DNA from: Obrimoposthia wandeli
Taxonomy: Eukaryota
Assembly: GCA_977020255.1 (NCBI GenBank)
Contig: CDROCS010006690.1
Span: 1 to 64,000, forward strand
DNA: 64,000 bases
Reading direction: 5' to 3'
Shown: in pieces, positions 1,335-23,338 of the stretch
Layout of the letters: each line of letters begins with the position of its first letter
How positions within the stretch are numbered: the first letter of the stretch is position 1
Notes under the pieces: model-generated
Database searches by the model: none
What the model was told of the DNA's origin: nothing
The model's input: the letters and a program-made list of their open reading frames with translations, nothing else
Made by a program: the position numbers and the translations under genes

Positions 1335-1850
1335 TCAATTGTAATTGTCGGCTGGTTCCGACTGGCCAGGTAGCGCAGGACCTGCTCCAGGGGTAGGTCG
1401 GGAAAGGACGGACTGTCCCCGTTGTACAGGTGTAGTTGTTGGCTCCGGGTTAGGTGTGGGCTCTCGACAAACAGGTCGAAATACTGCCCGTTCATCGCGT
1501 GATTTTCTATCCAGAGACGTCTGGCCTGGAACCACAGTGGCAGTCTCGACTAGACCGCCATCTCTCGCGGATGCCCAGTTGTGTGTCGCGCCGGCGTGCG
1601 AGACACGCAGCCAGCGTGGCAATGTATGCCGCAATGCAGCTGGCAGGCGATCGGGTGCCCTTGTGCCTTCCACGGCTCTGGAGCGTCCATTTGCCAAAGG
1701 GTGTCCGGCACAGTGGACATGTGATATGGCCGGGGTCGAGCCTTGGCCCACAAATAGAAGGCACTCCTCGTGAAATTTGTGACGGCAGCCGACAGGGGAT
1801 GCTGATACCGCCCAAATCTTCTCCATACATACAGAGCACTTCATCTGCAT
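1335..1850 (-). pseudogene. RING-H2 protein 3 (frameshifted)
   Basis: MKCSVCMEKI...GCRHKFHEECL, then WAKARP and ITCPLCRTPF in adjacent frames. Confidence 0.72.
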
Positions 1851-2161
1851 AAGAAAATAACTCCTTTCAATTTGGGGTTCACCGTTCTCATCGTTAATTT
1901 AAATTTTAATTTCAAAACGAGTCCTTAGTTATCTAATCCTACCGAGTTTTGTTTCGATTTTAGGCATGTTTACGCATTCACACTAAGCATAAAATTGTCT
2001 TTTTTAGAAATTCAGTATAATAATTACAATTTCAGTTAAACATCATACATAAAAATGGTAATGGTCAATTTACAGTTCACAAGATTATATAATTATGATT
2101 ACAATTATGGTAGCTAATTTATCGCGGTATGCCATACACAGGGTAGTTCATGATGTCACGT

Positions 2162-2491
2162 TCAAGTCAGAAAGTTACCTTCGATTATTGTTGGGGATTG
2201 GGCTGGCCTGTGCTTCGCTCCTCCACGCAGAACGAGCACCAGCAATCGCAGATGGTTTTTCAGCAGTGTACGATGGGTACCACTGCTTGGAGGCTGTCCT
2301 GGTTGTACACGTAGTGTACTGAGAAGGTCGCTCTGCACATCGGGCAGGTTGGGAAGTCGAGGGATTGTTGCTGTTGGCAATGGGGATCCACGTCTCGAGG
2401 CATTCGACGTGGAAGAGAGGTGGTCGCAGTTGTTGGGCTTGGTGTAGAAGTCCACGATGCTCTCGTAGCAGATGGAACATTCTCCAGACAT
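2162..2491 (-). pseudogene. RING-H2 protein 2 (frameshifted)
   Basis: MSGECSICYESIVDFYTKPNNCDH continues in the neighbouring frame as LFHVECLETWIP. Confidence 0.7.
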
Positions 2492-2499
2492 TACTGTGG

Positions 2500-2849
2500 G
2501 AGGTTGATGTTGAATTTGGGCTCGATTGAGGACTGGTGGTTGTGTGATGTTTACACAAAGTGGTCGGATTTTGTCGATCTGACAAACAGTAATAACACCA
2601 ACACTCTCCGAAATTCTTCCAACAGAATACCACCTGTACATATACATCCTCTTGGTCGGGTTCTAACATGATGAATCTTGCGAATTGTCTTCTGCATACA
2701 GGGCAACAAGGGTATGTTGGATGTCCGAACTGTCCATAAGTTCTGATCCATGTCGATAAACATTCCTCGTGGTGTAAATGGTTTGCAGTTTCGGGTCTTG
2801 TTCTTCGTTCGGTTAGATCTTCCAAACATATTGGGCATTCTTCGGACAT
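2500..2849 (-). CDS. RING-H2 protein 1
   Basis: MSEECPICLEDL...HLHHEECLSTWI...CPVCRRQF. The 3' end is uncertain because of frameshifts. Confidence 0.75.
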
Positions 2850-2972
2850 TCTAAATACATGATGATGATTAATTTCTACATGAGTTTTATATATTTCTAC
2901 TATTTGTACAATCACTTCTAGATATTTCTACATATTTCACACACTAATTTATCTACAACCTCCTCTGACTTA

Positions 2973-4195
2973 TCATATCTTGATTGGAGGCGGAGGTAAG
3001 TCTAATTCCACTTCCTCCATGATGGGTGTGTCACAGCATCGCAATCCTTCGCATTTTCGTCGTACTCTTGGGCATACTTGACTGCCTTTTACGCACACGA
3101 TTGTCAATAGAACCACTGCTGTTGACACTACGGCCATTCCAATTAGGGCATTGACCGCCGTTATTCCGCTGTCTGATGATTTATAATCATACTTCATTTT
3201 GTTGTTTGTCGGTTCGAATGACATTTCCATGGGTTTTGATCGGTTTCCATGTATTATGTCCGATTTTCTAAAAATTCGGGGATTTGGGTGTTTTGTTTCT
3301 GATGGAACAGGTATTATTATTTTGGATTGGAAATGATGTTTGGGATCTAGTGGGATCGTTCCCCTCACTCTTGTCCTCTTAATAATTGTACTTTGGTTTC
3401 TGGGATTTAGCTCTTTTTCTTTCGCTTCTGTCTTTGTTCTGATCACTGTCGGTTTTTTGGAATGGCGTTTACTTTCGATTACCTTTGCCTTCTTTTTTGA
3501 CTAGGATTGGTCTTTTTGGGAATGATTTTCTGGGTTTGATACTTATACCGTATCTACGAAATCGACGGTTCTGGTATCTTAGAGTTATGTAGAATATTTC
3601 ACCTGTTATTATCATGATTATGGTCGAGGTCTCTGTAGTATTACTGGAAATTCGATTACACAGACATTCTGTGTTAAAATGTGGTACTAACATTTGGCTT
3701 TGGATTTCGAATCTGATTCCGCCATCTGGGTTGGGACACATTACTGTTACTCTGTCGGTCTCAGCAATCTGAAAAATATCCTAACGGAATTCCATACGGC
3801 TTTACGTCGTCAACCTGTGATTATACTCCTGTCGACAATTTTCCAGAAGCGCTCATCTCTAGGTAATATTGATGACTGTGTTCGATACTTTGGATAATCA
3901 GCTTCCTCTTTGATATTGTTATCCGTAGGTATAACACTCTTTCATGATACAATAATATTAAATTGTAAACGGGTGTATATTGGTCGATTTTTATTCTGAC
4001 CTGTCGGATGACATACAATTTCTGATCGATATTATCAGTTGCTGACGTCTGTAGATGAATGTCTACTACGTGATTTGTTTTTAGAAGGGGGATTTCTATG
4101 TATACTGCCCGTATTACGTCTTATCTCCATTTACTGATCATGATCTCATAACTAGCCTTGGTAGTGGTGATTTGTATGATCAGCATGATTCCTAT
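2973..4195 (-). pseudogene. Putative type I membrane protein, broken by stops and frameshifts
   Basis: Signal-like IIGIMLIIQITTTKA near 4150-4190. Fragments 3821-4018, 3469-3741 and 2973-3446 follow, the last with TM ALIGMAVVSTAVVLLTIVCV and a PPPP tail. Confidence 0.45.
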
Positions 4196-5105
4196 GATCG
4201 TTCGATTCTAAACTCAGGAACTTCAATGAAACAAGTCAAATTACTCATATAGTACGGTCTTTCCTCGATGTGTTCATATATCGTTGGCTGGTACTCTGGT
4301 GCTGGTTCATCTAAAAATGGTGGTCTTGGTATAATTGTGTTGAATTTTTGTAAGTTCATTTGACCTGTTCGTCTTGCGAGATCATGCCGTTTCTTTTTGA
4401 TCTCAATTCTAACTTTGTACAACAAAACAAGATGAGTAATATTAATATTATAAATCCAATGATCAGTGCGAGTATTGGATTAATCAATTCTAGAATACCG
4501 TAACGTACTGCTGGTATTCCTTTACTCTTGATGGTTAATATTTTAAATTTGTGTGCACTTTGGTTGGATATGTCACTGAAAGTACTATTTTAGTTTGTCC
4601 AAATGTGTAGTCTTCACATGTGACAACATCAATTCCATAATGTCTATTAAGTGTTTTCATTTCGGTCAGCTGGAACTATACATATCCGTCCTGGACATCC
4701 TTTTACACACATGATCATTACAGCTTTACTGTAGGATGTCTTGATTATTTCTAGGGTGTTGTCTAGATTTCTCAAATGTAGATTATATTCGGATAATGTC
4801 ATCATTTCAGCTTTACTGGTCGGCATGGCTTGTAGTACCAATCCAATTACTACTCCATAAATCAATCCTTGTGCAACGGTGCACAGGGCCTTGACTGACC
4901 TTTTGCAAAGGGTTTTAATTATCAATCGTTTGAGAGATATCTGTTTCTGATTAGATCGTTTTGTTATCTGTCGTTGTTTTGACATCTCCTCGATTCCATT
5001 TCTTCCGATAATTAACTGTACCGGTTTACCTTGTATCGTCAACTTTCCGAATCCATTTTTGGCGGACAAGCATGTTTTATGTCCTTCCATCGTTTCAATT
5101 ATCAC
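4192..5105 (-). pseudogene. Putative type I membrane protein, broken by frameshifts
   Basis: Signal-like GLIYGVVIGLVLQAMPTSKA. A frame shift near 4665 gives an ectodomain ending in TM ILALIIGFIILILLILFCC (about 4430-4490). ORF 4192-4425 is a basic and Tyr/Pro-rich tail. Confidence 0.5.
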
Positions 5106-7702
5106 TCTCTTACTTCATACTCACGTGTTTTGATGACATCGCCATCGAATATATACGTTGGTCCTTTTGTATCAGCATCTTTTTGTATTTCCTTTACAAC
5201 TCGTTTTCTTCGCTTGCATCCAGCGAATGTTGTTGATATTCGGTCAAGTGTGCGCTGTCGGTCAGCTTCGTAATCTATTCGAAATTGATTCAGTATTCTG
5301 TTTTGTGGGTAAAATATCGCTTCATTTACTATATTGTCCTCGATCCTTTCGTCTAGATACACAAGCACTTTGTTCGTTGGTCCATTTGGTCTTTTCATCT
5401 TTACAAACTGAAATCTTTTACTGTCGGTTCTCATAGATCGAAGACATTTTCGGATGATCCACACATCAATTAGTCCTAACAACACTAATAGCATCATCAG
5501 TGCCGGTGTATGGTACTGTGTGGTGTAGTTGTGGATTTCGTTGAACCAGGAACTATTTCCGTGGTTGGAGCCTATCTCCTGTGCTCCCGTTATCGGCATT
5601 AAACAGCTTAACAAGCCTATCGCTAGCAATCTTTGGTATTGAAAGCTGGGCACTGTTGTTGTAGCTTCATTTGTTTCTCGTTGTTGTTTCCTCTTTTCGG
5701 TGTATTTCTCTATTTCTCGAACGAGTAACGGTTTGAATTCCGTATTTGGTCTATTCTGTTTGATGTAGACCATCGCTTCTTCTGGCGTGTGACCATGGTA
5801 CTCTACCAACAAGGATACACCTATGGTAGGCGCTAACATTGTACCTTTTTTCTGATATATCAGAACGCCGTTTCCTTCTGTGACTTCAGCTTGGATGGTT
5901 TGAGTCAATTTCGTCAGATGTTGTTGTGCATCGTTTATCTCTCGATTGGAAGCATGTATGTATCGAGTGGTGTCATCTTCAGTATTTTGACATAGACTAA
6001 TTATCTCGTTTCCGACTTCGACAATGTTGATTACTCGGTTGATACTGTGGAACTTTAATCCAGCAGTGTCTATATCTCCTGGATGACATAAAAATACTTT
6101 TGGCATTATCTGTGTAATTTTGTCGACTCCGGCTAAAAATAACCCGGTCAATGATAATGCTTGGAGGAAATTCTTTTCCTTTGGATCCTCAGGAATGTCG
6201 TCCATCCGTCTTTGTTCTTGCAACAGAAGTTGGTAATTTGCCAACTGTCCCAAAAAATTAAGATTTGGGTTTGCAATACTTCTTCTCTCCTGTAGGTATT
6301 TTAGCGCTTCTAGTACCTGCATTCGTCTAGTCTTTATTAGGTATGCTAATACTAGAGTTGCTGATCGAGAAATTCCTTTCTGACAATGTACTAACACTTT
6401 TCCTTGGTTCCGGAGTTCTCTGTGAAGTATTTCGTTTGTTTCTACAAACCATTCGAGAAGATTAGCGTCCATTGAGTCTTTTACTCTTAATGTCATAGCT
6501 CTGATTGTCTGATATTGTGATTTATGACTCATTGTAACGTTGATCACGTATGTTATCCCTTGTTCCAACAGTTTCTTTTCATCTGTTGCATCTTCCACAT
6601 TTCCGAGGTATAACTTATTTGGAATGATCTCACTCATTGGTGGCATTAATTCTGACTCTTCAAGTTTTAGTCTTTCTAATCTCTTCTCTATCTGTTCGTC
6701 GATGTTAGTTAGTTTTGCCAGTTTCTTTCCTCTCAGCATTCGTATTGCTGGAGAGGTATTCATCTTTGTCTCTGATGTCTGTTCCTTTGTTGAGTCTTCT
6801 TCCGACTCGGTCTCTTCTGCAGATTTAATTCGTCTTTCTTGTATATTCTGTTTCACGAATTCTATGTTTTGTCTTTTTCTGCTCTCTTTAGCGAATTCAA
6901 CCTCCATGGTTCTTCCGAATCGCTCTATTATGTTATCTTCGGATTCTGTTGATTCTGTATCGTTACTTTCCGGTTCGCTGTCTTCACTAGACTCGCTCGA
7001 AGGGTATTCTGGTATGTCTGTCTGAACTGAAATTAATGAAGGTGTTAGAATAATTGGATTGATTTCCCCTTCGTATTTGTGAATCGGATACGGTATTACA
7101 CTATCTTTAAGTATCTCAACTTGGAACTGTGCTCCATAGCACATGACAATTGTTTCCAATTTACCCATGATGGACAATCCATCAAAATAGGTAACATTCA
7201 GCTTAGATATCGGTGTCTTCGCATAATTAATTAAGTTTACTCGTATCTCAGTTGATGACGGCCATCGATGTTTTAGTAAAATTATAATTTCGTCGTTTAT
7301 CGATGTAATTACACTTGGTGCGGATGATACTATTTCGGCATGATATTTTGGCTGGTTTGAAGTTGTTACTTGTTCTCGGATCATATTGATTCTTTGTGGT
7401 TTTTTATTTTTAGCTTCCCACTTCCGGTATCCGCTGTCAATGCGTAATTCTGCCGTTGCTTTGATGATTTTATTGTTAGTCACTTCCGGATGGGTTGGCG
7501 AATGGAATCCTTCTATTACGCTCAACCTTACAGATACTTCCGTTTGATCTGTGTCTAACCGGTGAGATTCTGGTATACAACATACAATTGTCTTTCCATC
7601 AAAGTATTTGGTGTCCATCTGACAAATTATCTTTTCAGTGTCAGCGTCGATTAATTGGACTCTCATGATATCTCTTTTCCCATGTGAATTACGTAATACC
7701 AT
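5102..7702 (-). CDS. 866-aa accessory ORF: YFDG repeats, acidic linker, dual-specificity phosphatase, pseudophosphatase, signal/TM segments
   Basis: KLYLGN...ITYVINVT...D...VLVHCQKGISRSATLVLAYL...RRSIANPNLNFLGQL at 6230-6637. A second DSP-like copy at 5700-6122 has IYQKKGTMLA in place of HCxxGxSRS. Confidence 0.9.
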   Translation of the reverse strand: MVLRNSHGKRDIMRVQLIDADTEKIICQMDTKYFDGKTIVCCIPESHRLDTDQTEVSVRLSVIEGFHSPTHPEVTNNKIIKATAELRIDSGYRKWEAKNKKPQRINMIREQVTTSNQPKYHAEIVSSAPSVITSINDEIIILLKHRWPSSTEIRVNLINYAKTPISKLNVTYFDGLSIMGKLETIVMCYGAQFQVEILKDSVIPYPIHKYEGEINPIILTPSLISVQTDIPEYPSSESSEDSEPESNDTESTESEDNIIERFGRTMEVEFAKESRKRQNIEFVKQNIQERRIKSAEETESEEDSTKEQTSETKMNTSPAIRMLRGKKLAKLTNIDEQIEKRLERLKLEESELMPPMSEIIPNKLYLGNVEDATDEKKLLEQGITYVINVTMSHKSQYQTIRAMTLRVKDSMDANLLEWFVETNEILHRELRNQGKVLVHCQKGISRSATLVLAYLIKTRRMQVLEALKYLQERRSIANPNLNFLGQLANYQLLLQEQRRMDDIPEDPKEKNFLQALSLTGLFLAGVDKITQIMPKVFLCHPGDIDTAGLKFHSINRVINIVEVGNEIISLCQNTEDDTTRYIHASNREINDAQQHLTKLTQTIQAEVTEGNGVLIYQKKGTMLAPTIGVSLLVEYHGHTPEEAMVYIKQNRPNTEFKPLLVREIEKYTEKRKQQRETNEATTTVPSFQYQRLLAIGLLSCLMPITGAQEIGSNHGNSSWFNEIHNYTTQYHTPALMMLLVLLGLIDVWIIRKCLRSMRTDSKRFQFVKMKRPNGPTNKVLVYLDERIEDNIVNEAIFYPQNRILNQFRIDYEADRQRTLDRISTTFAGCKRRKRVVKEIQKDADTKGPTYIFDGDVIKTREYEVRE

Positions 7703-7887
7703 TATTACATCGTGGTATTCTTGTTTGAGTCTTTTGGTGTACCATGCAGTATGTGACCACCGGCCGGTTCTTTTTCTTCCTGACTGGCTAGTCCTGCTTC
7801 AGTACTGTCATAGTTCTGCCATGCAACTATGTTTGGTGTCAATGTGATTTCGATTATCACTTTCTCAGTCGTAAACACATTGGAATT

Positions 7888-9396
7888 TTAATAAAGCGCT
7901 GCGACTAGTGTATTCCCGTCATAGTATGACACTCTAAGTTCGCACAGAAATTCGTTTGTCAGTGCATCTTTCACAATGACTTCTTTCGCCACATCTGTTG
8001 GTTGTGTTTTTTCAAAAACAACTATTATCTCTTCGTCTTCTTCTAATATCTCTTGTGGTGCGATGTGTCGGATTACTTCCTTTTCCTCTTGGTACTTCAT
8101 TCTGAGCATACCAATTCTCGCTGGTTTTTTCTCGCTACCACTCGTCATCATGTTTATGTAGTTCTGATCACTTACCATTCGTGTAAGTTTAATGGTATTG
8201 GTATTCGATTTCGATTTCTGTGATCTTAACTCATATCGTGACGCATTATCTTTATTTGGTACTAATTTGCATCGATTTGCATGTACAATCATCGGTTCCT
8301 TGTTCCGATTCTCTTCGTTGATTACTTTCAAATTTGTTGAGGTTGTCTGGATCACCTTGTATGGTCCTTTGTATGGTCTATGAAGTTTAAACGATAGACC
8401 TGGTTCGATGACTGGATAAAATATCATCACTTGATCTCCGACTCTAAATTCATGCGGTTTTGCTTTTTTGTCGTATTGTTCCTTGTAACCTTCTTGATTG
8501 AATTTCAACTTCAATCCGGCTTTGGTCCAAGCATCTTGTAACCTTTCCTTCATGACGACAATGTATTGTTCAGTTTCTAGGTACTGAGATGTTGGCTCGG
8601 TCCACTCCAGATCCATTGGCATATTGTTCTGTCTGAGATACATCAGATAGAATGGTGTGTGACCCGTCGCCTCTCGAACTGAATTCCTGTAAGCATATAA
8701 ACATGAAGGTAAATATTTATCCCAATCCTCTTGCTTGTCTGAGCAATAGGATTGTACCATCATACATAAAGTTTTATTAAACCTTTCCACCAGACCATCT
8801 GTCTGTGGGTGATATGGTGAAGTTTGTAACTTCATGATTCCGAATATCTTCGATACTGCTTTTATGACTTCTCCAGTGAAGTTCTTACCTTGATCCGTTA
8901 ACAATTTTCTAGGCACTCCGTATCGAAATATTATCTCTTCTACTAAGATTTGTGCTATTGTTTCAGCCTTCTGGTTCTGCATGGGATATGCTTCTACCCA
9001 TCTCGTCATGTAATCCGTAAATACTATGACATACTTGTTTCCTTTACTTGATTCTCTCAATGGTCCCAATATATCCATCGCTGTGAATTCCATTGGTGCC
9101 AAGGGAACTGGCATTGGTTTCAGTGGAACTTTAGTACGAGTTCCGGTGTCTTTTCTGGTTAAACATACTTTACATTGTTTACACCATTGTTTTATGTCGT
9201 CTTCCATACCATCCCAATGGTACTTCTCTTTGATTCTGGCTATTGTCTTTCGCCCTGACAGATGTCCTCCTAGTGTTCCGTCGTGATACTGGATCATCAC
9301 TGCTGTTTTCAATGACTTCGGAATTACTACTACTATCTTTCCGACATTATTGACAATATACAAGATGCCTTCTTTTATCGAGTATTTTTTCGTCAT
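7888..9396 (-). CDS. pol: Integrase with C-terminal extension
   Basis: HHCC (HDGTLGGH...CKQC), DILGP, TDQGKNF, YHPQTDGLVERFN and GPY/F (YKGPYKV). Confidence 0.95.
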   Translation of the reverse strand: MTKKYSIKEGILYIVNNVGKIVVVIPKSLKTAVMIQYHDGTLGGHLSGRKTIARIKEKYHWDGMEDDIKQWCKQCKVCLTRKDTGTRTKVPLKPMPVPLAPMEFTAMDILGPLRESSKGNKYVIVFTDYMTRWVEAYPMQNQKAETIAQILVEEIIFRYGVPRKLLTDQGKNFTGEVIKAVSKIFGIMKLQTSPYHPQTDGLVERFNKTLCMMVQSYCSDKQEDWDKYLPSCLYAYRNSVREATGHTPFYLMYLRQNNMPMDLEWTEPTSQYLETEQYIVVMKERLQDAWTKAGLKLKFNQEGYKEQYDKKAKPHEFRVGDQVMIFYPVIEPGLSFKLHRPYKGPYKVIQTTSTNLKVINEENRNKEPMIVHANRCKLVPNKDNASRYELRSQKSKSNTNTIKLTRMVSDQNYINMMTSGSEKKPARIGMLRMKYQEEKEVIRHIAPQEILEEDEEIIVVFEKTQPTDVAKEVIVKDALTNEFLCELRVSYYDGNTLVAALY

Positions 9397-10412
9397 TTCA
9401 TCATTTCATCTCCTTTCACCAACAATTCTTTGATTAGACTCAGTTCTTCATCTTCTTTCTGTTCTTTGATGATCTCTTTGTCTATTTTACCCGTCTTTAG
9501 CAAAATCGTCAGTAGATTTGCTTCTCCTTTTTGGTCATTGGTTTCATCTTCTTCTGGAATGATGTTTCCTTTTTCATCTACATTTGTCAATCTCGATAAA
9601 CAATCTGCGTTGCCATTCGACTTTCCGGTTCTATAACGGATTTCTAGATCGAATTCGGCCAATTTTAGAAACCATCTGTTTAATCTACTCATCTCATCTC
9701 TATGTTTATACAAGAACTGTAGTGGTTTGTGATCTGTATATAGGAATACTTTTTGTCCTAGCAAGTAGTGTCTGTACTGTCTACATGAATACACTATGGC
9801 TAGACATTCCTTTTCGATAACAGAGTATCCTCTTTCGGCTCTGTTTAATCCTCTACTCGCATACGCGATGACGTGTTCTCTTCCTTCGTCATCCTCTTGT
9901 CCCAATACTGCTCCTACAGCATAGTTACTTGCATCTGTCATAAGTATGAATTGTCGGTTTATATCTGGAAACGCTAATATTGGTGCTTTTATCAGTCTTT
10001 CTTTTAAATGCTCGAACGCTTGTTGGGCTTCTTCTCCCCATATGAACTTCTCATCTTTTCTCGTCAACTTTCTCAATGGTGTTGCTATATCTGAAAAATG
10101 TTCAACAAATCGTCTATAATAATTCGCCAGACCTAAAAAACTCTGTATCTCCTTAACAGTCTTTGGCGCTAAATGCGCTTTTACTTTCTCGATCTTTGCT
10201 GGATCAGGTCGAATGCCTTCTTTCGATACTATATGTCCTAAAAATGTTACTCGCTCTTTAGCCCATTCGCATTTTGTAGGTTTAACTTTTAATTTAGCGT
10301 TTTCCAGTCTTTTAAATACAACTTCAAGATTTTTTAAATGTTCTTCGAACGTTTTCGAAAATATTATTATGTCATCGATATAAACCATCGTGTTTGCACG
10401 ATGCGAGTACAA
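9393..10412 (-). CDS. pol: Reverse transcriptase C-terminus and RNase H (frameshifted from upstream ORF)
   Basis: VYIDDIIIFS, FLGHIVS, SFLGLANYYRRFV, TDASNYAVGAVL, EKECLAIV, TDHKPL, NADCLSR. Confidence 0.95.
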   Translation of the reverse strand: MYSHRANTMVYIDDIIIFSKTFEEHLKNLEVVFKRLENAKLKVKPTKCEWAKERVTFLGHIVSKEGIRPDPAKIEKVKAHLAPKTVKEIQSFLGLANYYRRFVEHFSDIATPLRKLTRKDEKFIWGEEAQQAFEHLKERLIKAPILAFPDINRQFILMTDASNYAVGAVLGQEDDEGREHVIAYASRGLNRAERGYSVIEKECLAIVYSCRQYRHYLLGQKVFLYTDHKPLQFLYKHRDEMSRLNRWFLKLAEFDLEIRYRTGKSNGNADCLSRLTNVDEKGNIIPEEDETNDQKGEANLLTILLKTGKIDKEIIKEQKEDEELSLIKELLVKGDEMMK

Positions 10413-13400
10413 AATTCATGCAACGCTGAAATGTTGCTGGAGCTCCTGTCAGTCCGAATGGCATCTTTTCGCATTCGTATAATCCATCTCCGCAGGAAAA
10501 GGCTGTTTTGTGTTTATCCTCTTCCTCTATCTCGATTTGCCAGTATCCACTCTGCAAATCTAATGTTGTAAAATAATCTGAATTACCCAATTTATCGAGC
10601 ATCTCTTCGATTCTAGGTAATGGATACACATCTTTTCTTGTGATCTTGTTCAGTTCTCTGAAATCTATACAGAATCTCATTTTCCCATCCTTCTTTTTTA
10701 CCAACACCACAGGTGCTGAGAATGGCAAAAAACTCGGTCTAATTACTCCTGTTTTAGACATATCTTCAATCTGACTTTTTACTTCATCTTGTAACTGTAA
10801 TGGTACTCGATATGGTCTTCTTCTGACTACTTTGTCTTTTGTCAGTGGTATTGTATGTTTTATGACAGGTGTTTCTCCTATGTCATATGGATTTTTTGCA
10901 ATTACTTTCGGAAATTTATGTATTAGATCAAGTAATTGTTTCTTTTCTCTAGTTGTCAGTCTTTCTGATTGGATTACTATTTCTTCGTAATCATTCGTAT
11001 CTTTATCGAGTTTCATAGTGCATACAGTGGAATTCTCCATCTGTGCTATCTTTCCCAACCTCATTCCTCTGTATAATAGGATGTCATTGTTGGTTGTATT
11101 CATCAGTCTAACTGGTATTTTGTGGTTTTCGATCAGGCATACTGTACTCACAACTGGTAATTCGTATTTCTCTATGAAATCTCGTGATGGTTCGAACACA
11201 ACTGGTCCTTTATCTTCTGATAATGTGTGACCTTGAATAAGAAATTGCGATCTTTTACCGATTTTTATAGGATTCTCTATAATTACATCAATTTGGTTTA
11301 TTTGTCTGTTTGATGTGCTATCCTTCAATCTTGGATCTTGTAAATCAATACTTATCCCTTTAAGTTGTGATAGTACATCCATTCCTAAAATTGTAGGTTC
11401 AGGACATTCTTTCATGATTCTAACTGGTATAGTGATCGTATTACGTCCAATTATAAATGTACATGGTAATATTCCCGTTACTTTTACAGGGTCTCCATTG
11501 ACCGATACCAAGAATTCGTCTGGTTCTGCCATTGTTCGTTTCTGTTCCTCTGTCAAACAGTCTTCACTTACTATCGAAGCTACAGCACCTGTATCAATTA
11601 AGGCTTTTACTCTTAAATTATTTACTCTAATGATAGCTGCTGGTCGCTGTGCTCCATTTATGTTTCCCATATGGTATATTGTATTTATCGAATTATTACA
11701 CTCTGTCAGTCCACTTCCTATGTTTGGATAGTGAAATCTAATGTTTCTCACTTGTCGATCTATTATTCTTCGACAAATCGGACATGATACCATTTCATTC
11801 GCACATCTCCGACATGTTCTTACATGTCCGCATGGTAGAAAGGCAACTTCTATTTTGTTGACCATGCAAACTGCGCATTCCGGATCTTCTAGTACGTATT
11901 CTAGTTCATTTATGTACTCTTTCTCTTTTGTTTCAATTGTACTGTCATCTTTATCTCGCAGTAATTCAAAAATCGATCCGTATCCGTTTCGCGTAGTTTT
12001 TATTTTTAATTCTACCAATTCTCTGATTCTTTCTGCTTCTTTTGGATATAACCTTCTCACGAATGACACTACCGGTGTGTCTTGTTGAGCCAAAATCTCT
12101 TTCCGTGTGATTTGGTATTCGATTATACATTCGGTTTTCTGTTCTTTTTGCTTTATTTTGTTTTTAAAAGTACAAAATTCGCAAAATTCATGATGTAAAA
12201 TTTTCTTAGGTAGCTCAAGAGTATATCTGTCGATAATTCGTTCTTTTTTACACTTGTGGCATTTAATTACGTCTTTACCATCCTTTTTTATAGCAAAAAG
12301 TCCCTTTTTTGCCAATTTTTTAAGTCTTGGGTCTTCGAAGGTTATTTCTCGATACTGTTCGTCACATTCGTTCACTTCTCGCATAACTTCGAATATATCT
12401 TCAATTCGACTATTCGTTATTACTCTACCTGTTATTAGAGCTGATTCTCCTTTCGGAATCCCGTCACTGTAATCGAAATCGGGTGCTTTTCCCGTTTGGA
12501 TTTCTGGTACGTTTGACGTTTTCAGTTTCAAAAGAAATGGACAATTTGGTGCATCTCTTTTATGACGTCTCATTGGGTTTTCATTCTGTTCCCATTCTCT
12601 AAACTTTACTCTACACCATACGCATCGTACTACTATCTCCTGACCATAACTGCTTGTCGCGTTTAACATTTCTAAACCTGATCTTGCCATTTTACGTGCC
12701 ATTCCTTTTGAATAGTACTGTTCTAATATATTTCGTCTCTTTCTCTCGAATCTCATGGGATCCCTTTCTGACAGATTCACATATGTTATTTTTCTCCTCG
12801 TCATCTCTTGTGGTCCGAGGTTTACGTTTTTGTAGTGAAGTATCGACTTTACTAGCGCTTCCTGTTTTTTGTCTTGGTACGAATTTCCCATACGGAACGT
12901 AGTGTATTTTTCCTTTTCGACTATAGGTCCTCTCAACATTTTTATCTCTCTCACTGAACTGTCATTCTTATAACTCTTGTTGTTTGGTAGTATAATTATT
13001 CCTTCAAACATTCGTATTACGTCCATCCCAATCATGACTGGACTACCGCAATCTGTGAATATTCTAGCATTTAATTGTAATGCTCTTCCATCGATATTCA
13101 ATGAACATTTCAGTGTTCCTTCCGACACTACATCTGTACCATTCACGTTAACAAATGTCTGTTTTCTAGGACATACTTCTCTTAATTCTTTTGATGACAA
13201 GATTTCTTTACTTAGTACTGATACTGCTGATCCGGTATCAACTTCGGCAAGATATTCTCTTCCGTTCAATGTTACTGCTACTTGTGGTGGAGCATTTGGA
13301 TTCTCATTTGATATTCTAGATTTCAGAATTCTTCTGGAATTATCTTTTTTGTCTTTTTCCTCTGCTTGTGGAATTTCACTGTAGCTCACTTTAGGCCATC

Positions 13401-16400
13401 TTATCATTAAGATGCCTCTCTTGAATTTTTCCTTCTCTTCCTTCAATTCCTTCATTGGATATAGGTTTAACGCCACTTCTTCCTTGTCTGGTAATGGAAT
13501 CTTTGGTTTTCCTGGTATCTTTGCATATACTTCTGGACTATCATTATCGTCGTCGTTGTCGTCTCGATAGTTTCTTGGTTCTCGCATCATGGTTCTCGTT
13601 TGGTGTTGTTCCTTCTTGAGGGCTCGCAACTCGTTCTCGTGATGATGATGCATTAGATATTTTGCTAAAAATGGAAAACATCCAATTATAAGTTGCCAGG
13701 TGATTCCGGTTATCCTGTATAAACTATACGTAGACAACACCTGGGCTATAATTACCTGCACAAATTTAATTATAACATAAATACCTATGATACCCGAAAA
13801 TAATTGTCCTAAGACAAGGAATTTCCCCCACATCTTTCTAAGTGTCTGATGTGCTGCTTCCTTGAAATGACTTGGCGATAATAACATATCGAAATTCGCA
13901 TATCTCGCTCCTGGCGGTAATGCTCGATGTACCATCTCCGTAAGTACTCTGGCTCTTCTTACTGGAAACATTATTTCGTTCCACGCCGCTTTTAAATCTT
14001 TTTCATTGTACAATCCTGCGTTCTCCATATTTTCCATCGCTTGGAATTTCATTTTACCTTTAAGATTCGTCATTCTTATCATCGCTGGGGTTGTCGTTGG
14101 CTTCCGATCAGGTAACGTTATCCATAGATTATTCGTCATCTGATATTCAGGTGCCATTATATTAGAGCAGCTGATTTCTTTAGTTGGAGTGTCTTTTGGA
14201 AGTAACATTCTCGTGATTGGTTCAACAAAAAGATCTTTTAAATTATACGTTACTGCCAATTCGCTCGTACATCGATCTGTTTTTCTCAACTGTACCTCTA
14301 CTTTATTACACTTGTAAGTATATAATACTTCTCCCATGGTTTTAGCAAATACTCCTTCATCCAAGGGTAATAATGGTGCTACCATGTCTGGATTCGTAAT
14401 AGCTAATGCTAATTTTGTTCTTACGATCTCTTTGTTTAACTGGCAATCTCTTTCGATCATCATCCGATATAACTGTTCCATTTGCATCAATCCTTTATGA
14501 TAATAGAAATCAATTTTATTATTAAAATACGTGTGTAGCTGCATATCTTTTGGTTTTAGCTTGGTTTCTGCCAATGCTATTGCTTCTTTAGACAAAACTA
14601 TTCCTGGATAGTTTGTAGTACTAACAGTCATTCCGCATCGCGCTTTGTTTCTCTTTTTAATAAATATCAATCCTTCTTCTATTGATGTTGCCATTAACAG
14701 TGTAGGTGTTTTTGTCATTGGAATTGGTCTTGTTTCATTTAGCAATCCTTTTCCTACTTTATTATACAGGAACCCTTCTCCATCTTTATTATACAGGAAT
14801 CCTTTTATTTTATTAAAGCTAATCTCTTTCAAAAATACTAAAGAGCATTGCTTCGGATTTATGTTATACACAATTGTGGATTCACCTGTAAAACAAGATG
14901 CATCTGTCATTTTACATTCTGGATACTTCATCATTAGTTGTGTCTTTTTATCAAAATTGGCGGTCCATGTTTTTAATTCGATTTTGTAAGTTACATCCAT
15001 TACTAACTCAGATACTTTGGTTGCACTCACGTTTTTTGTTTCTCCGTCACAAGATCCATCAGCCCATCGTTGTCCGACTCTCGTGACTGTTTCGTATCGT
15101 CTCACTCCAATTTTTACTTCAGGTTTGTAATTCTTGTCTACCTCTATCGTTCCCGTTCGAAATGCATCTTCGCAATCTCTCGGCAAAACCTTATGTGCCT
15201 TGTACGGTGTGGTAGGTGTGATTTCTGACATAAAACTTCTATGGCCACAATAGAATTCGTGATAACTTGAATGGATTGAACATTCTTTCACTTCTACTTG
15301 TACTTTATCAACATCCTGATACACAAAGTAGTTTTCAACACCTTGAACTTCTAGTTTTGACGGTTGTGATTCTGGACAGTCTTCGCTGTCAAGCAGTGAA
15401 TACGTTTGTCCCATCTTTGGTATGCTACAGTCATATGCTATCAATCCTGATGCCTGTTGCATTCCCATGAACATTACTAACATCATCATCATCATTGTTG
15501 TGGACATATTTGGTTGATTGTTTCTCTCTTTCGGACGGTATTGTTTATTTTCCTTTTGACGATTCTCATGACATTGTTCGTCATCGTCTTCATTCATTTC
15601 CACAATGGTTTTAGCGTAGTCACTTAATTTTGCCCAACCTCCATTTTCGTCAATTCGTCTCTGTAATACATTCTCGATCAAATACATCGCTTCATTTATT
15701 CCTTGTTTGACTTCGTGAGGTTGGCTCGTTCGTTCCGTCAATTGGAAACATAGATATGTGATCGCTGTAATTAACTTTTTATTTGTAGTCTGGTTTCCAC
15801 ATAGTCTCGCTAAAACTTCACCGTCATAAAATCTATCTATCGATGCATGGTATACATGATTCGCGGTCATTCTCTTTACTGCAGACATCTGTGATCTGAC
15901 TGCTTTAGTCAAATTGTCTGTTATATCGGTTGTTTCATCTCTGTACATTTTAAACAACTTCGGCTTCACTTGCCTGAGAATTCCCGTAAGTATATCTTTA
16001 CTACTTGGAGTTTCCGAATTCATATCACCTCTGATATCTTCATTCCTCTCTGCACTATACTGCTCTAATGACGCTGCTAACTGTCCAATACTTAGATGTC
16101 TCTCTTCATCAGTTTGTGGTGCTGTTAGAACATTTCGTAATATACTTTCGCCTTTTCTAGGTCTTCCAGGTCCTCTTCGAAAATACTGATACTCAGTTTG
16201 ATTCTCTCCTGGATCATACGTTTCACCATTATACTGTATCTCTTGACTTGGTCCTTCTTCATGGCCAATCTCTTCACTTTGTCGCATCATTTGCTCTGCT
16301 TGTCTATCTTTGTATGCGGCATGCCAAATTGGTGAATCCAAATCTACAATCTCGGAGACTTCGTCTTCTCCTACTAGTTGGGTTACGGTTTCGTTTTGTC

Positions 16401-16641: not shown

Positions 16642-16759
16642 TATCTCGGTTAATCCTTCATTATCTACTAACTCTTGACGTCCTACAGTGATGACATCAA
16701 TTTTTCCTCTAATTCATTTCCTATCGGATATCCAAACTCGACTGGTACGTCCTCATCAT

Positions 16760-18364
16760 CTAGTGATCTCCTTTATAATGGAACAACATATTCATTCCAT
16801 CAATTTCAAGTTTCTCAGCCAACTTTTTCCGAATCGTTTTCATTGTTTGATACACGTTAAGTTTTTCATGTATTATCTGTCCGGAAATTAATCGAAGTGA
16901 AATTTTCATCGTTCCTTTTTGGTTTGATCTCTGTACATAACGACCATAACCTTTCAGTAGTCCTCGGGGTACTTCTTTGTAACCCAAGTTATCATGACTA
17001 TGTTTAACCAATTCTGCACGCACTTCTTCCAATCGGTGCACTTTAATTGTTTGCAATTTGGCCAGAACTTCTGGAGCTTCACTCGTTTCATCTAACGGTT
17101 GATTTAACGTCTCCTTAGCTTCACTAATTATCTTTTTTACATTTTCCATACTCGTAGCATTTCTTGCTGCTTCTACATGATCAGTCATAGGTTGTGCGTT
17201 ACACGTTTTCTCTATTGGTGTCTCATACGCTTCTAATATTCTATTCATTAAATCATTCATCTCTTCTCTCGAATGTAGACTTTTCTCTTGTTTCGACAAC
17301 GTAGATGAATTTGCCATCTTTGTATGTGGTGAATCTTTAATTATTCCCAACATTCGTTCAAATTTACTATCACTATCTTCAAAATCTATTTCGCGTCGAA
17401 GCTCGGTCTCGCGATTCCTATCACTGTCATCGTTTACATAACTAAAATTTCCTTTCGGTTTCGGCGAACTCTCACGACTATTTGTCTTGTCGACATTATT
17501 ATTATTATATCTACCAGAATTATTATATCTCTCAGCTCCTTGCTGTCCTACGTAATTATTGTATCTCTCAGCTCCTTGCTGTCTATCTGCATAGTTATTA
17601 TATCTACCTGGTGACTGTTGTCTATCTGTATACTGATTATTCAGTCTCCATGGCTGTGGAGTATATCCACCACCTCTATTCCATGGCGGAGGTGAATTAT
17701 ATCCTCTATAATTATTTCCAAAATTATTATTACCGAAATTATTATTTCCAAATCTGTTAGCTCCGAACTCTTTACTTCTCGTACAATCTCTCGAATAGTG
17801 ACCCATTTGTTTACACGTGTAACACATTATTCTCCCTCGAATATCTATCTTATTTTGTTCATCTTCGAACTGTACTCGACGACTATTTTGTCTATTATCA
17901 TAGCGTCCTCTAAAATCATTTCTTCGGAAATTCGATTCAAAACCGCTTCCTCGATTATTGAATCTTCCGTCGCTATTTCCTGTATTATTTCCAAATCGAG
18001 AGTCACTTCGCTCTCCTCTGTTGGCGTTATAATTCCTATCGTCTCCTCTCCAAGGTTGGCGATTTCCTGAATTATCTCTATTAAATCTATTCCTGGAATC
18101 ATCTCTATTTCTATTCCACGAATCATTATTATTTCTACCTCTTGAATCATCTCGATTCCTGTTCCAAGACTCACTATTATTTCTACCTCTCGAATCATCT
18201 CGATTCCTACTTCGGAAATTATCTCTATTTCCGTTACTGGATTCATCTACTTTTTCAAACTTATTTTGTCCATAATTTCGATTCTGAAAATTACTCGGTT
18301 CTGTTTTATTCACGAAGACCTTTGTCTTATCGTCGTCACCTGCAGTCATTGCGTAGATTGCCAA
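16760..18364 (-). CDS. gag: Gag C-terminal part: N/R/G-rich repeats, CCHC zinc knuckle, C-terminal ubiquitin-like domain
   Basis: CYTCKQMGHYSRDC at 17783-17824. It overlaps the previous ORF by 19 nt, and one extra A in the A5 run would fuse them. Confidence 0.85.
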   Translation of the reverse strand: MAIYAMTAGDDDKTKVFVNKTEPSNFQNRNYGQNKFEKVDESSNGNRDNFRSRNRDDSRGRNNSESWNRNRDDSRGRNNNDSWNRNRDDSRNRFNRDNSGNRQPWRGDDRNYNANRGERSDSRFGNNTGNSDGRFNNRGSGFESNFRRNDFRGRYDNRQNSRRVQFEDEQNKIDIRGRIMCYTCKQMGHYSRDCTRSKEFGANRFGNNNFGNNNFGNNYRGYNSPPPWNRGGGYTPQPWRLNNQYTDRQQSPGRYNNYADRQQGAERYNNYVGQQGAERYNNSGRYNNNNVDKTNSRESSPKPKGNFSYVNDDSDRNRETELRREIDFEDSDSKFERMLGIIKDSPHTKMANSSTLSKQEKSLHSREEMNDLMNRILEAYETPIEKTCNAQPMTDHVEAARNATSMENVKKIISEAKETLNQPLDETSEAPEVLAKLQTIKVHRLEEVRAELVKHSHDNLGYKEVPRGLLKGYGRYVQRSNQKGTMKISLRLISGQIIHEKLNVYQTMKTIRKKLAEKLEIDGMNMLFHYKGDH

Positions 18365-19158
18365 TGCTGCATTATTATATTTTTCTCAATCTCTCTCGCC
18401 TTTCGTACGGCGTTATCAAAATCATTTGTATCCGATACTGCTAATAACACTTTAATATCCTTTTTCAATCCTCCTCTAAATATATCTAACAAGACCTCTG
18501 CCATTTCATTTTGGTTCCGGTCATTTTCCGCTGCTTGTGCTTCTTGAGGTACAGGAATACCGTCCTGATTTCTCATTATTCTTCTTGGGTACGCTCTTGC
18601 GGCCAAGGTTCTCAAAACATACGCGTATTCATTCACGCCTTCATCATGTTTCTGTTTCCGTTCTCTCATGAGTCGCTTATTTACTTTGGCTAAGTCTCCT
18701 AATACCAATTTTCCAATAAAAGCATTTTCCAACGTTGGCCAGTCTAAACGTTCTGCTTCTGTCAAATGTTTATACACTTCAAGTGCTAATCCGGTTAAAT
18801 GTGCCTGTACTCTGACACATTTTTCTTTATCGTTCCATCCTTGAACATCTGCACAACTCGAATATTCTGCGAGGAAGTCACAAATACTTTCCTCATCTCC
18901 TTTAAATTTTGTAATCTGCAATGATCCTGAAAAATTGGGTCTCAACGTCGCATTTAAAGCTTGTGCCAACTGCTCGGCATTCATGTCACCTACATTATTT
19001 CCTGCATTAATATCTGCTTGAGCTCCTGGGTGAGCCATATCTTCAATTATATCGTCTTCAACTATTTCTTCAATATTATTCAACGGAACTTCCTCAATCA
19101 CTACTGGATTGGCAATTTCAAATTCTTCTGGGTCTATGTCACCAAATAATTCAGTCAA
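18346..19158 (-). CDS. gag: Gag, capsid-like N-terminal part
   Basis: Retrotransposon-gag pattern KFKGDEESICDFLAEY...WNDKEKC...LTGLALEVY...WPTLENAF...RKQKHDEGVNEYAYVLRTLA...FRGGLK. First ATG at 19038. The frame is open up to about 19390. Confidence 0.85.
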   Translation of the reverse strand: MTELFGDIDPEEFEIANPVVIEEVPLNNIEEIVEDDIIEDMAHPGAQADINAGNNVGDMNAEQLAQALNATLRPNFSGSLQITKFKGDEESICDFLAEYSSCADVQGWNDKEKCVRVQAHLTGLALEVYKHLTEAERLDWPTLENAFIGKLVLGDLAKVNKRLMRERKQKHDEGVNEYAYVLRTLAARAYPRRIMRNQDGIPVPQEAQAAENDRNQNEMAEVLLDIFRGGLKKDIKVLLAVSDTNDFDNAVRKAREIEKNIIMQHWQSTQ

Positions 19159-19429
19159 ATTAAAACTGCCGGTTGAAACCGCTGATTGATCAACGTCTCT
19201 TTCTGATACGTTTTCTTCGACTCTAGTCTTTTTTGTTACTTTGTTATCTGCTTGGGGAACCTGTTCAATTCGGTTAACTTTATTATTATTTATCTCTTCC
19301 TTGGGAATCTGACTTTGTCTTCTAGTATTAAACGCGGGTCCTTTTCTATTATCCGTTGTCTTATCAATTATGTATTCGTTTACGATATCAATTTACTTAT
19401 TATTTTTTATCTTATTTCACAATTCTTGT

Positions 19430-19650
19430 TTTATGATTTTTTATCTCTTTAATTAGTTCGAGGACAGAGTCTCCCGACTTAACCTATTCAATTAATTACT
19501 TCGAGTATCAATCCACTCGATTCTCACTTTATCAAATTTATTTACGATTTTATCTTTTTAATTAGTTCGAGGACAGAGTCTCCCGACTTAACTTATTCAA
19601 TTAATTACTTCGAGTATCAATCCACTCGATTCTCACTCTATCAAATTTAC
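19430..19650. repeat. About 109-bp tandem duplication in the retroelement leader
   Basis: attagttcgaggacagagtctcccgacttaac... starts at both 19452 and 19561. Confidence 0.9.
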
Positions 19651-19654
19651 TGAC

Positions 19655-20356: not shown

Positions 20357-20375
20357 ATCCTCACTCGGGGCACCA
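20357..20375 (-). promoter_or_regulatory. Primer-binding site, elongator tRNA-Met-like
   Basis: Minus strand TGGTGCCCCGAGTGAGGAT lies 8 nt inside the LTR end. It resembles the complement of the metazoan elongator tRNA-Met 3' end (TGGTGCCCCGTGTGAGGAT). Confidence 0.8.
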
Positions 20376-20586
20376 CTTTAATATGTTGGGGTTTCTATAC
20401 GAAACTTGGTACAGATCCTCTGAAATGCGGAGGGCCCCAACGTGAGTTCGAATAGAAGCAGGTCTTAAAGTTGGTCGTGGCCTACTTAGTGTTATGGTTG
20501 CCTATCTCTTGTACTATCTGAAGGTATTTGATTTGATGTCTCTTAATTTGAAGGTGTAAAACAACTGGTTCTAATGTAGGAAATCG

Positions 20587-20592
20587 TTTATT
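20587..20592 (-). promoter_or_regulatory. Candidate polyadenylation signal in LTR
   Basis: AATAAA on minus, about 200 nt before the LTR 3' end. Confidence 0.5.
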
Positions 20593-20811
20593 GGTAATTC
20601 ACAAATCTAAAACACAACAATACGTTTATGTACGTATTTTCTAAAAAGTACAGTAAAAATTCCTAAGACTTCTGTAAGTCTCTATAACCAGTGGGGATGA
20701 ACCACGTATCGATTTTACGTTAAGGGTAATCGAGATTTTAGAGTTGTTCCTCTAACTCTCTTGACGACAATATTGTAGGGCAATTACTTCTTTAACAATT
20801 ATTGTAGTTCA

Positions 20812-22100
20812 AAAGGGGCAAACAATTCTACTAAAATATTGTGGTTTAAAATGGGTAAACAATTCTACTAAATTATTTTGGTTTACAATGGGCAAACAAT
20901 TCCACTAAATATTGTGATTTAAAATGGGCAACACAATTCTATTAAAATATTGTGATTTTTAAAATGGGCAACACAATTCTATTAAAATATTGTGATTTTT
21001 AAAATGGGCAACACAATTCTATTAAAATATTGTGATTTAAAATGGGCAACACAATTCTATTAAATATTGTGATTTAAAATGGGCAACACAATTCTATTAA
21101 AATATTGTGATTTAAAATGGGCAACACAATTCTATTAAAATATTGTGATTTAAAATGGGCAACACAATTCTATTAAAATATTGTGATTTAAAATGGGCAA
21201 CACAATTCTATTAAAATATTGTGATTTAAAATGGGCAACACAATTCTATTAAAATATTGTGATTTAAAATGGGCAACACAATTCTATTAAAATATTGTGA
21301 TTTAAAATGGGCAACACAATTCTATTAAAATATTGTGATTTAAAATGGGCAACACAATTCTATTAAAATATTGTGATTTAAAATGGGCAACACAATTCTA
21401 TTAAAATATTGTGATTTAAAATGGGCAACACAATTCTATTAAAATATTGTGATTTAAAATGGGCAACACAATTCTATTAAAATATTGTGATTTAAAATGG
21501 GCAACACAATTCTATTAAAATATTGTGATTTAAAATGGGCAACACAATTCTATTAAAATATTGTGATTTAAAATGGGCAACACAATTCTATTAAAATATT
21601 GTGATTTAAAATGGGCAACACAATTTTATTAAAATATTGTGATTTAAAATGGGCAACACAATTCTATTAAAATATTGTGATTTAAAATGGGCAACACAAT
21701 TCTATTAAAATATTGTGTTTTAAAATGGGCAACACAATTCTATTAAAATATTGTGATTTAAAATGGGCAACACAATTCTATTAAAATATTGTGATTTAAA
21801 ATGGGCAACACAATTTTATTAAAATATTGTGATTTAAAATGGGCAACACAATTCTATTAAAATATTGTGTTTTAAAATGGGCAACACAATTCTATTAAAA
21901 TATTGTGATTTAAAATGGGCAACACAATTCTATTAAAATATTGTGATTTAAAATGGGCAACACAATTCTATTAAAATATTGTGATTTAAAATGGGCAACA
22001 CAATTCTATTAAAATATTGTGATTTAAAATGGGCAACACAATTCTATTAAAATATTGTGATTTAAATGCAAACAATTCCACTAAAATATTGTAGTTTAAA
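20812..22100. repeat. 38-bp tandem minisatellite inside LTR (about 33 copies)
   Basis: Unit aaaatgggcaacacaattctattaaaatattgtgattt, with the period checked at 21121/21159. Copies degenerate at both edges. The same array ends at 1-180 in the other LTR. Confidence 0.97.
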
Positions 22101-22200
22101 ATGCTATCAACCTCGTCGCGTCTCACCGATTTGATCTTAGATATCCGAGATGGTCCTTGCCTTTTGTGGGATATCCGAGCTTGTGTAGACCTAGTCGACC

Positions 22201-22330
22201 GATTTGAGGATTTGTGAGCTAAGTTGGTTGATTTGAGGATTTGCAAGCGAAATTGTCTGTTTTGAGGATTTGCGAGCTAAATTGTCTGATTTGAGGATTT
22301 GCGAGCTAAATTGTCTGATTTGAGGATTCA
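22201..22330. repeat. 29-bp tandem repeat inside LTR
   Basis: Unit gatttgaggatttgcgagctaaattgtct, 4-5 copies. The counterpart is at about 277-455. Confidence 0.9.
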
Positions 22331-23338
22331 ATTTCCTTTCCTTTAAGCAATTAATTTCACTGATTTGAGGGTTCAATTTCCTTTCCTTTAAGCAATTAAT
22401 TTCAGGCAATCTAAATTATAGACTAAAAAATGAAATCGCCCAAATTCCTTACCTACTAACTTCTCCTCAGTCGATTGTCTATTCCGCTTTGTTTGTGTGT
22501 TCCTTCTCTTTTGTAATTGGTTTGGGCAGCGACTTTTATAGTCGATTTTCAATCAGTAATGTCGGCAGTGTGCGTGTTTGTTTCTTGGCGACTTTTATAG
22601 TCGATTGTCAATCAGCAATGTCGGGCAGCTGAAATATATTTCCTGAGCGTAAGTCCTGACAGCTGAAAAATTCAATTAATTCACGGCACGAAAATGTGCT
22701 TACCGTTTCCTTGATTGACGTTTTTCGAAGTTCCTGTTTTTCTTTTAATTACTGTTTTTTTGTTGCACTTTTGGGTTAATTAATCTAACTTTTATACATT
22801 TCACATTATACACGACCTTCGTGGTCCTCCTAATTTTTACCCTAAATTCCACTAATTTCAATTCTAAAACTAAAATTAATATTTAATTTAATTTTCAACC
22901 TTGCTTTCAAGGACTTTTATTTTAGTATTTAATCGACTAAAATATTTAAATTTCTTAATTCTCAAACCTAACACTTCTAGTAGTGTTGCTCTTTTATACA
23001 GAGCCAGGGAAAACAGAATTTGTCCAATCAGACACCGGCGGTAGAGGGAATATTCGCATCCGGGCCTGTAATCCGTCTGATCTGACCGCAAAGCTTGTAT
23101 TTTGAACTGGGACGGGGAAAACTGGCCGAGTGAGATAAATATTCCAAAAATCAATAATGCACAGGCAGCATTTGAACTGGGACGGGGAAAACACAGCACA
23201 TATCCGTCTACACAGCAGAGGCACTATCCGACAGTTTGTCAGTTCTGCACGCACGAGATGATGACGCTGCTGCATTGATGTAACTGGTCGAACCAGGAAA
23301 CTGTAGTAACAGTTGACGATGAAATGAAAAGGGAAATG

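Follow-up and report, generated by a model that had tools for sequence, protein, structure and literature searches.

The window analysed here is a stretch of 64,000 nucleotides (nt) of Obrimoposthia wandeli at the start of contig CDROCS010006690.1 (GenBank assembly GCA_977020255.1; 1.35 Gb in 6,912 contigs, the assembly behind the copy counts given below). Its bases 1–22973 are filled by a minus-strand long terminal repeat (LTR) retroelement of ~23 kb with long open reading frames (ORFs) between the LTRs, which is, on its domains, of Ty3/gypsy type (Metaviridae) with a giant, Burro-like architecture. The env gene of this element lies in one frame with gag and pol, and Gag, Env and Pol would probably be made as a single ORF1 polyprotein that is threaded through the endoplasmic reticulum (ER).

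One reading frame from gag through env to pol

In the window copy, ORF 10372–16713 on the minus strand is stop-free over 2,113 amino acids (aa) and encodes, in this order, a Bcl-2-fold domain, an internal signal, the env ectodomain, a transmembrane helix, a protease, a BIR domain, a RING domain and a further protease, followed by the first part of the reverse transcriptase (RT). These features and the adjoining parts of gag and pol are as follows, with aa numbers referring to the 2,113-aa frame.

17780..19041, minus strand: gag region, first Met at 19041; a frame change breaks gag in the window copy
15589..15954, minus strand: Bcl-2-fold domain, aa 254–375, with a BH2-like GGW at 15642 (aa 358)
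15445..15507, minus strand: internal env signal, aa 403–423; signal-peptidase cut predicted after Gly423
13825..15444, minus strand: class III fusion glycoprotein ectodomain (Pfam PF24664), predicted, with 14 Cys and 2 N-glycosylation sequons
13729..13824, minus strand: env transmembrane helix (stop-transfer), aa 964–995, from hydrophobicity
13663..13707, minus strand: weaker second hydrophobic stretch, aa 1003–1017, read as a cytosolic amphipathic helix
13444..13464, minus strand: Tyr-Pro motif, LYP-x-x-x-L like, closing the env tail
13018..13281, minus strand: aspartyl protease 1, aa 1145–1232, DTG intact (Pfam)
11755..12702, minus strand: BIR and RING, an IAP-like module; BIR at 12702–12532 (E 2.9e-10), RING at 11886–11755 (zf-C3HC4_3, E 2.2e-11; both Pfam)
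11356..11649, minus strand: aspartyl protease 2, aa 1689–1786, DTG intact (Pfam)
7705..10701, minus strand: RT, RNase H, integrase and C-terminal tail of ORF1 (Pfam); window copy broken near 10400, 9400 and 7890

Two sets of genomic copies, together 73 copies besides the window, were compared. Set 1 comprised 39 copies picked by env likeness; because this choice is biased toward a clean env, set 2 was drawn, comprising 34 copies picked on the integrase/phosphatase region. In set 1, the interval from Bcl-2 to the signal was open in 37/39 copies, env in 38/39 and the interval from the transmembrane helix to protease 1 in 31/38, with any 75-nt interval being broken in at most 7 copies and those on the env flanks in at most 2. 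In set 2, env was found at its expected place in 33/34 copies; the same three intervals were open in 25/33, 15/33 and 23/33 copies, respectively, and all three together in 11/33. The breaks were scattered, and the most-broken interval of this set, with 7 breaks, is located within env.

Among the 73 copies, no common stop or frameshift flanking env was found. The breaks of the window copy near 18370, 16730, 10400 and 9400 are each common to at most two other copies, and the single break universal to the copies falls after the integrase (29/29 copies chosen on that region). As no break is shared, gag, Bcl-2, env and pol constitute one ORF in the family, and ORF1 is a single gag-Bcl-2-env-pol frame of ~3,780 aa. 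A prior interpretation made from the window's letters without database searches (the sequence-only reading) had placed env upstream of pol and in frame with it, with no stop on either side; the 2,113-aa frame and the survey of copies bear this out. With no break common to the copies, a programmed frameshift or a readthrough linking gag, env and pol was rejected, and an assembly artefact was rejected because the long frame is open in many copies and in independent relatives.

Of the best 72 env matches (query of 607 aa, the window among them), 70 sit in open frames of at least 1,000 aa. In thirteen proteins, that of the window included, env is preceded by 100 or more gag-side residues, and several of these embedded-env proteins have CCHC knuckles upstream and protease, RT and integrase downstream. 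One gag-env-pol polyprotein, P0002, is recorded under a Flavobacteriaceae metagenome bin as a hypothetical protein, with eukaryotic contamination as the most likely origin.

The env glycoprotein

The Pfam family Monjiviricetes_fusion (PF24664) matches the window ORF at E 1.9e-94. An AlphaFold model of env obtained from a 61-sequence alignment had a mean pLDDT score (predicted local distance difference test) of 79.8. In Foldseek searches, this model matched herpesvirus gB among PDB entries at E 4.4e-13 (target-normalised TM-score 0.40) and chuvirus-like G among models of viral proteins at E 9e-44 (target-normalised TM-scores reaching 0.65); a PDB sequence search with the env profile gave no clear match, the best gB row being at E 0.91. 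Judged by the model, env is a class III fusogen of gB/G-like five-domain fold with conserved disulfides, chuvirus-like G being closest, and the chuvirus-G/gB type named in the sequence-only reading is thereby upheld.

The signal stretch is the same as in the window over 33 aa in 65/73 copies. Across env-bearing proteins that are only ~25–40% identical, the cysteines, the signal pattern, the transmembrane helix and the tail motif are kept. In a quick env tree with 25 free-standing envs, the 13 embedded envs make up one side of a branch with 100% support in the Shimodaira–Hasegawa-like approximate likelihood ratio test (SH-aLRT), a branch separate from P0021, in which env follows DUF5641. In this tree, P0073 carries the label 'after integrase' without a Pfam check.

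Where env and pol share one ORF, any stop within env abolishes pol as well, and an open frame alone is no proof of env function. Env might thus be a decaying passenger, not inserted into a membrane, whose frame is retained only because its disruption would cost the element Pol. The features conserved at such low identity, the confident class III model and the retention of env in all but one of the integrase-chosen copies speak against such decay, which we regard as very improbable.

Predicted signal cleavage and membrane topology

One frame running through env creates a topology problem, since Gag and Pol are to be cytosolic and the ectodomain lumenal. A hydrophobic stretch was found just upstream of an AYDC-like motif in 13/13 gag-env-pol proteins; in the window, its core spans aa 403–418 (15507–15460), or ~15 aa. 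For the comparison of signal registers, 58/152 proteins were left out as being partial or without the AYDC-like motif. Small residues at positions −1 and −3, for a cut two residues ahead of the motif, were present in 14/15 embedded envs, with other registers giving 1–6/15, and the same register was evident in 59/79 free-standing envs with N-terminal signals, with other registers giving 0–22/79.

Within the ORF1 pieces of the window, the scoring scale revealed only two membrane-inserting segments, the signal and the transmembrane helix, which would place Pol back in the cytosol. The second stretch after the transmembrane helix was unfavourable for membrane crossing (0 to +5.4) in 11/11 proteins where it was located. 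In 5/5 relatives that have both the env signal and the RT motif, the number of segments counted from the one to the other was even (2, 2, 4, 2 and 2). A YP motif occurs in 10/10 linkers between transmembrane helix and protease of the polyproteins (2.8 expected) and in 54/77 free env tails (14.8 expected). This Tyr-Pro motif likely marks the end of Env and may perhaps have a late-domain or sorting role.

A different outcome would result if the internal signal stayed uncut as an N-terminal anchor, with an element protease cutting on the cytosolic side and Env being anchored twice. The leader peptide of foamy viruses provides a parallel, and the element encodes two intact proteases. Some gB-type ectodomains are, moreover, flanked by two predicted transmembrane domains, as would fit an uncut anchor (PMC13524379). 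However, the −3/−1 pattern stands in the register of the free-standing envs, and the hydrophobic core is short, making a retained signal quite improbable.

Alternatively, a spliced RNA, or one initiated internally, could be the chief source of Env, with a start at Met403 or in a leader exon, the in-frame site being an accident of capture. In Drosophila, the env of gypsy is made from spliced or internally started RNA. Met403 lies exactly at the signal start in the window family, and ORF2 and the three small RING ORFs downstream require some non-genomic route of expression. Yet, a Met fit to start a standalone signal (20–31 aa before the motif) was found in only 4/13 embedded envs, and no strong pyrimidine-rich acceptor was found in 16400–15507, the best having 10/18 pyrimidines. 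Furthermore, the frame ahead of the signal stays open in all relatives, and, with no stop after env, a separate env RNA would still yield Env-Pol. Taken as the chief source of Env, such an RNA is therefore considered unlikely. The contigs of two sequencing runs of undefined kind cover 30/30 bins, env included, and contained no joint that was informative on env splicing either way.

Threading through the ER with release of the Env N-terminus by signal peptidase is supported by these comparisons. Against it weigh Met403 at the signal start of the window family, which would suit a separate env transcript, and the ectodomains flanked by two transmembrane domains mentioned above. In addition, the −3/−1 rule fails in one relative (P0006), the second stretch after the transmembrane helix scores 0.0 in P0012, and in P0011, P0012 and P0016 the signal is preceded by one more, weak hydrophobic segment, whose crossing would spoil the even count. 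The membrane scores themselves were computed with a Hessa-type scale and our own weighting, not with SignalP or DeepTMHMM. Finally, gag to RNase H is open in only 2/36 copies of set 1, most copies being damaged somewhere.

Proposed processing model

The proposed processing builds on the shared frame, the domain order, both folds and the two membrane segments as observed or predicted; from these we infer the remaining steps. Env's own signal, ~1,180 residues into ORF1, would act as an internal signal and start translocation into the ER, whereupon signal peptidase would cleave after Gly423 and free the N-terminus of the ectodomain. The single env transmembrane helix would halt transfer, and the part comprising protease, BIR, RING, second protease, RT, RNase H and integrase would be returned to the cytosol. 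Since the Env/Pol cut would lie in the cytosol, signal peptidase could free the Env N-terminus only, and another protease would be needed. Most simply, this cut would be made by the element's own protease or proteases, which would sever Pol from the Env tail close to the Tyr-Pro motif and would mature Gag as well. Of the signal-peptidase processing put forward in the sequence-only reading, ER threading and release of the Env N-terminus are thus retained on comparative grounds, but not the Env/Pol cut.

Before further cleavage, the spent signal would tether Gag-Bcl-2 to the membrane and the Env transmembrane helix would do so for Pol, and such shared tethering would collect all parts for assembly and budding. 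The structural polyproteins of flaviviruses and hepatitis C virus (HCV) follow a similar working principle, the likeness to the element being in topology only.

The Bcl-2-fold domain and the tail-anchor question

Folded alone, the Bcl-2 stretch had a pLDDT of 61.9. Comparison of this model by VIA-align gave a match to Bcl-2 of Kaposi's sarcoma-associated herpesvirus (KSHV; rmsd 2.9, 113 residues aligned) with Z 10.1. For helical bundles, this Z lies below the level under which the tool advises caution, but the top rows all belong to one family and the profile search agrees. Of the first 34 rows, 32 have titles naming Bcl-2-family proteins or Bcl-2-like proteins of poxviruses, and a five-sequence profile of the domain finds Bcl-xL at E 0.0045; Pfam Bcl-2 matched the window domain weakly (E 0.1). 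Weak fungal clusters from the ESM Atlas (0.87–0.90) were overruled by the profile and structure matches. On the model, the upstream domain has the Bcl-2 helical fold with a BH2 GGW, in agreement with the Bcl-2-like protein supposed earlier. The ~35 aa then given between BH2 and the signal also hold: from GGW (aa 358) to Met403 there are 45 aa, corresponding to ~35 when counted from where the BH2 helix ends.

The Bcl-2 domain was recognised in 5/13 embedded envs, in one by Pfam (E 0.00096), in the window by fold and in three by motif and alignment. Where present, it sits 50–80 residues ahead of the AYDC-like motif, the signal being next after the domain. The 8/13 embedded envs without Bcl-2 still have the signal, implying that the signal belongs to env. 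In the quick env tree, the presence of Bcl-2 requires at least two changes, and three Bcl-2-less proteins nest beside a Bcl-2-bearing one with 99% support. An origin of the signal as a Bcl-2-derived anchor was rejected on the basis of these relatives and the env tree.

In the window, hydrophobicity revealed no separate membrane anchor between the Bcl-2 domain and the env signal. Having no anchor of its own, Bcl-2 would, by topology, be left on the spent signal after the cut. The idea that the signal doubles as the tail anchor of the Bcl-2-like protein hence fails as to origin, while the signal does follow Bcl-2 directly in 5/5 proteins bearing it. It is conceivable, albeit tentative, that the spent env signal is put to use as a tail anchor for Bcl-2.

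Comparison with known elements

A 2019 report on the planarian element Burro places env between BCL2 and protease in the same frame (PMC6431247), and Ty3/gypsy elements of the GAG-ENV-POL form with a gB-type env are described from flatworms, nematodes and bryozoans (PMC13524379, citing Sacco 2022). The in-frame arrangement, implied to be novel in the sequence-only reading, is thus not new but has been in print since 2019; what is gained here is comparative support for the processing model. Nor is the element of BEL/Pao type, the group for which that reading mentions capture of chuvirus-like G: the pol domains are of Ty3/gypsy type and env precedes the protease.

The Burro/GYPSM1 elements of dugesiid planarians are alike in having a huge ORF1 with Gag, a BCL2-like domain, an in-frame env that matches mononegaviral fusion glycoproteins, BIR and protease-RT-RNase H-integrase, and also in very high copy number and in tandem repeats (PMC6431247). 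While Burro exceeds 30 kb with an ORF1 of 4,873–5,140 aa, the element described here has ~23 kb and an ORF1 of ~3,780 aa (PMC6431247). It further differs, compared by description and not by sequence, in having two proteases around BIR-RING, and in three RING ORFs and an ORF2 bearing phosphatases and membrane modules, which are absent from the description of Burro (PMC6431247). Cargo differs among Burro elements (PMC6431247), and BURRO1 is transcribed and under piRNA control (PMC8532177). In the window, MATH, ankyrin, dUTPase and SUMO cargo gave no match in Pfam, HHpred not being applied; an ankyrin match was obtained in the relative P0152.

The gB-type errantiviruses share the Ty3/gypsy pol, the gB-type env between gag and pol and the occurrence of multi-copy intact elements, with 45 and 215 copies for the Smed elements (PMC13524379). 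A fragment of the Smed_errantivirus_1 env looks alignable with the env of the element, by eye only, and the main text on these elements is silent about frame and processing (PMC13524379). Atlas virus of hookworm (Belpaoviridae) is alike in that Env lies inside a single Gag-Pol-Env polyprotein with predicted release by cellular protease, and unlike in that its Env is C-terminal and of class II, phlebovirus-like type, its pol is of BEL/Pao type and no return to the cytosol is needed (PMC9094657). The G proteins of chuviruses and Monjiviricetes and herpesvirus gB share the fold and the cysteine frame, and the free-standing env relatives share the signal-cut register and the tail motif with the embedded envs. 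In contrast, chuvirus G and gB are separate proteins and the env of BEL/Pao elements stands after the integrase, the embedded envs forming a distinct branch.

Boundaries and family of the element

The ends of the element were assigned as follows.

20384..22973, minus strand: 5' LTR, ~2.6 kb, holding a 38-nt tandem array; inner end inferred; direct repeat of 1–1052
1..1052, minus strand: 3' LTR, only its start present, the contig ending inside it
20359..20375, minus strand: putative primer-binding site with a TGG start

Alignment of the LTR pair over 853 nt gave 798 matches, 33 mismatches and 43 gap columns. Both are direct repeats of TG...CA type and open with an identical TG-start sequence. 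The stretch 20359..20375 may resemble the 3' end of an elongator tRNA-Met. Tandem arrays with units of 38, 49, 20, 29 and 109 nt lie at 19400–22350, in the LTR and 5' leader.

A genome search with the env region gave 4,355 first-look candidates, and 40/40 scored matches were of full length with at least 99% identity, corresponding to at least 40 copies. The family is young, abundant and recently amplified.

A CCHC knuckle of gag is found at 17824–17780 on the minus strand; the capsid-like part, without a Pfam match in the window, is assigned from its position and from relatives, with a Retrotrans_gag match in P0012 (Pfam). The pol domains follow the gypsy-type order RVT_1, RT_RNaseH, RT_RNaseH_2, Integrase_H2C2 and rve (Pfam on the window). 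The two intact proteases bracket BIR and RING (11356–13281), and relatives have between 1 and 8 protease-like motifs per polyprotein.

Features downstream of the integrase and elsewhere in the window

Two further features lie between ORF1 and the 3' LTR.

2973..7702, minus strand: ORF2, ~1,575 aa in the family, with phosphatase domains followed by ~six hydrophobic segments; broken in the window copy
1335..2927, minus strand: three small RING-finger ORFs ahead of the 3' LTR; most of the 16 copies inspected have them

ORF1 ends at the window-equivalent position 7707 in 29/29 copies. At its junction with ORF2 (7700–7710, minus strand), a tandem TAA was found, the second of which overlaps the ATG of ORF2 (TAATG stop-start), again in 29/29 copies. 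Such a stop-start overlap is the pattern of termination-reinitiation, as in influenza B BM2 and SART1. ORF2 is open over more than 1,300 aa from its ATG in 18/29 copies. In 6/72 env-chosen copies, frames of 4,017–4,749 aa extend beyond ORF1 alone (~3,900 aa stop to stop), so that the two-ORF layout is possibly not fixed and a fused or longer form of ORF1 may exist.

The hydrophobic segments of ORF2 (2973–5700) lie near 5580, 5460, 4860, 4440, 4200 and 3134 and were read as three signal/transmembrane pairs. In 4/4 relatives reaching that far (P0001, P0002, P0015 and P0152), post-integrase signal/transmembrane segments, 2–4 each, are in frame with pol. Pfam gave no match above cut-off for the post-integrase ectodomains of ORF2, and an Atlas search with the largest of them stayed at chance level (0.78–0.81), its rows being mostly viral glycoproteins.

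A dual-specificity phosphatase is present at 5105–7798 on the minus strand (DSPc, E 2.3e-41) in two stretches, the second seemingly without the catalytic motif, by eye. ORF1 ends with one copy of a ~90-aa repeat whose core reads Y-x-D-G, and ORF2 contains two. The RING E3-like ORFs, together with Bcl-2, IAP and phosphatases, resemble the host-control gene set of large DNA viruses.

Elsewhere in the window, a MULE transposase remnant flanked by inverted repeats of 127 nt (41309–43368), a helix-turn-helix transposase-like ORF (37559–38338) and a RhoGEF host exon (63269–64000, E 2e-17) were found; a search with this exon gave no scored relative.

Significance

How Env is brought into the membrane with Gag and Pol remaining cytosolic is a problem not addressed in the publications covered, nor was a proposal or test of signal-peptidase processing for the gag-env-pol form found there, Grohme 2018 and Sacco 2022 lying outside this literature. 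A concrete and testable model is provided by the conserved cut site together with the tail motif and with membrane crossings that are even in number. With its many near-identical copies, the young family would lend itself readily to analysis of RNA and proteome in the host.

For gB-carrying elements, the mechanism of entry is called unknown (PMC13524379), and the membrane modules after the integrase are candidate partner proteins of the fusogen in this entry. More speculatively, and with considerable doubt, Burro-like elements may be multi-pass ER polyproteins like those of enveloped RNA viruses, in which one post-integrase module of signal, ectodomain and transmembrane helix would be the attachment partner of the fusogen, and the spent signal would be the working tail anchor of a Bcl-2 that blocks apoptosis at the ER assembly site.

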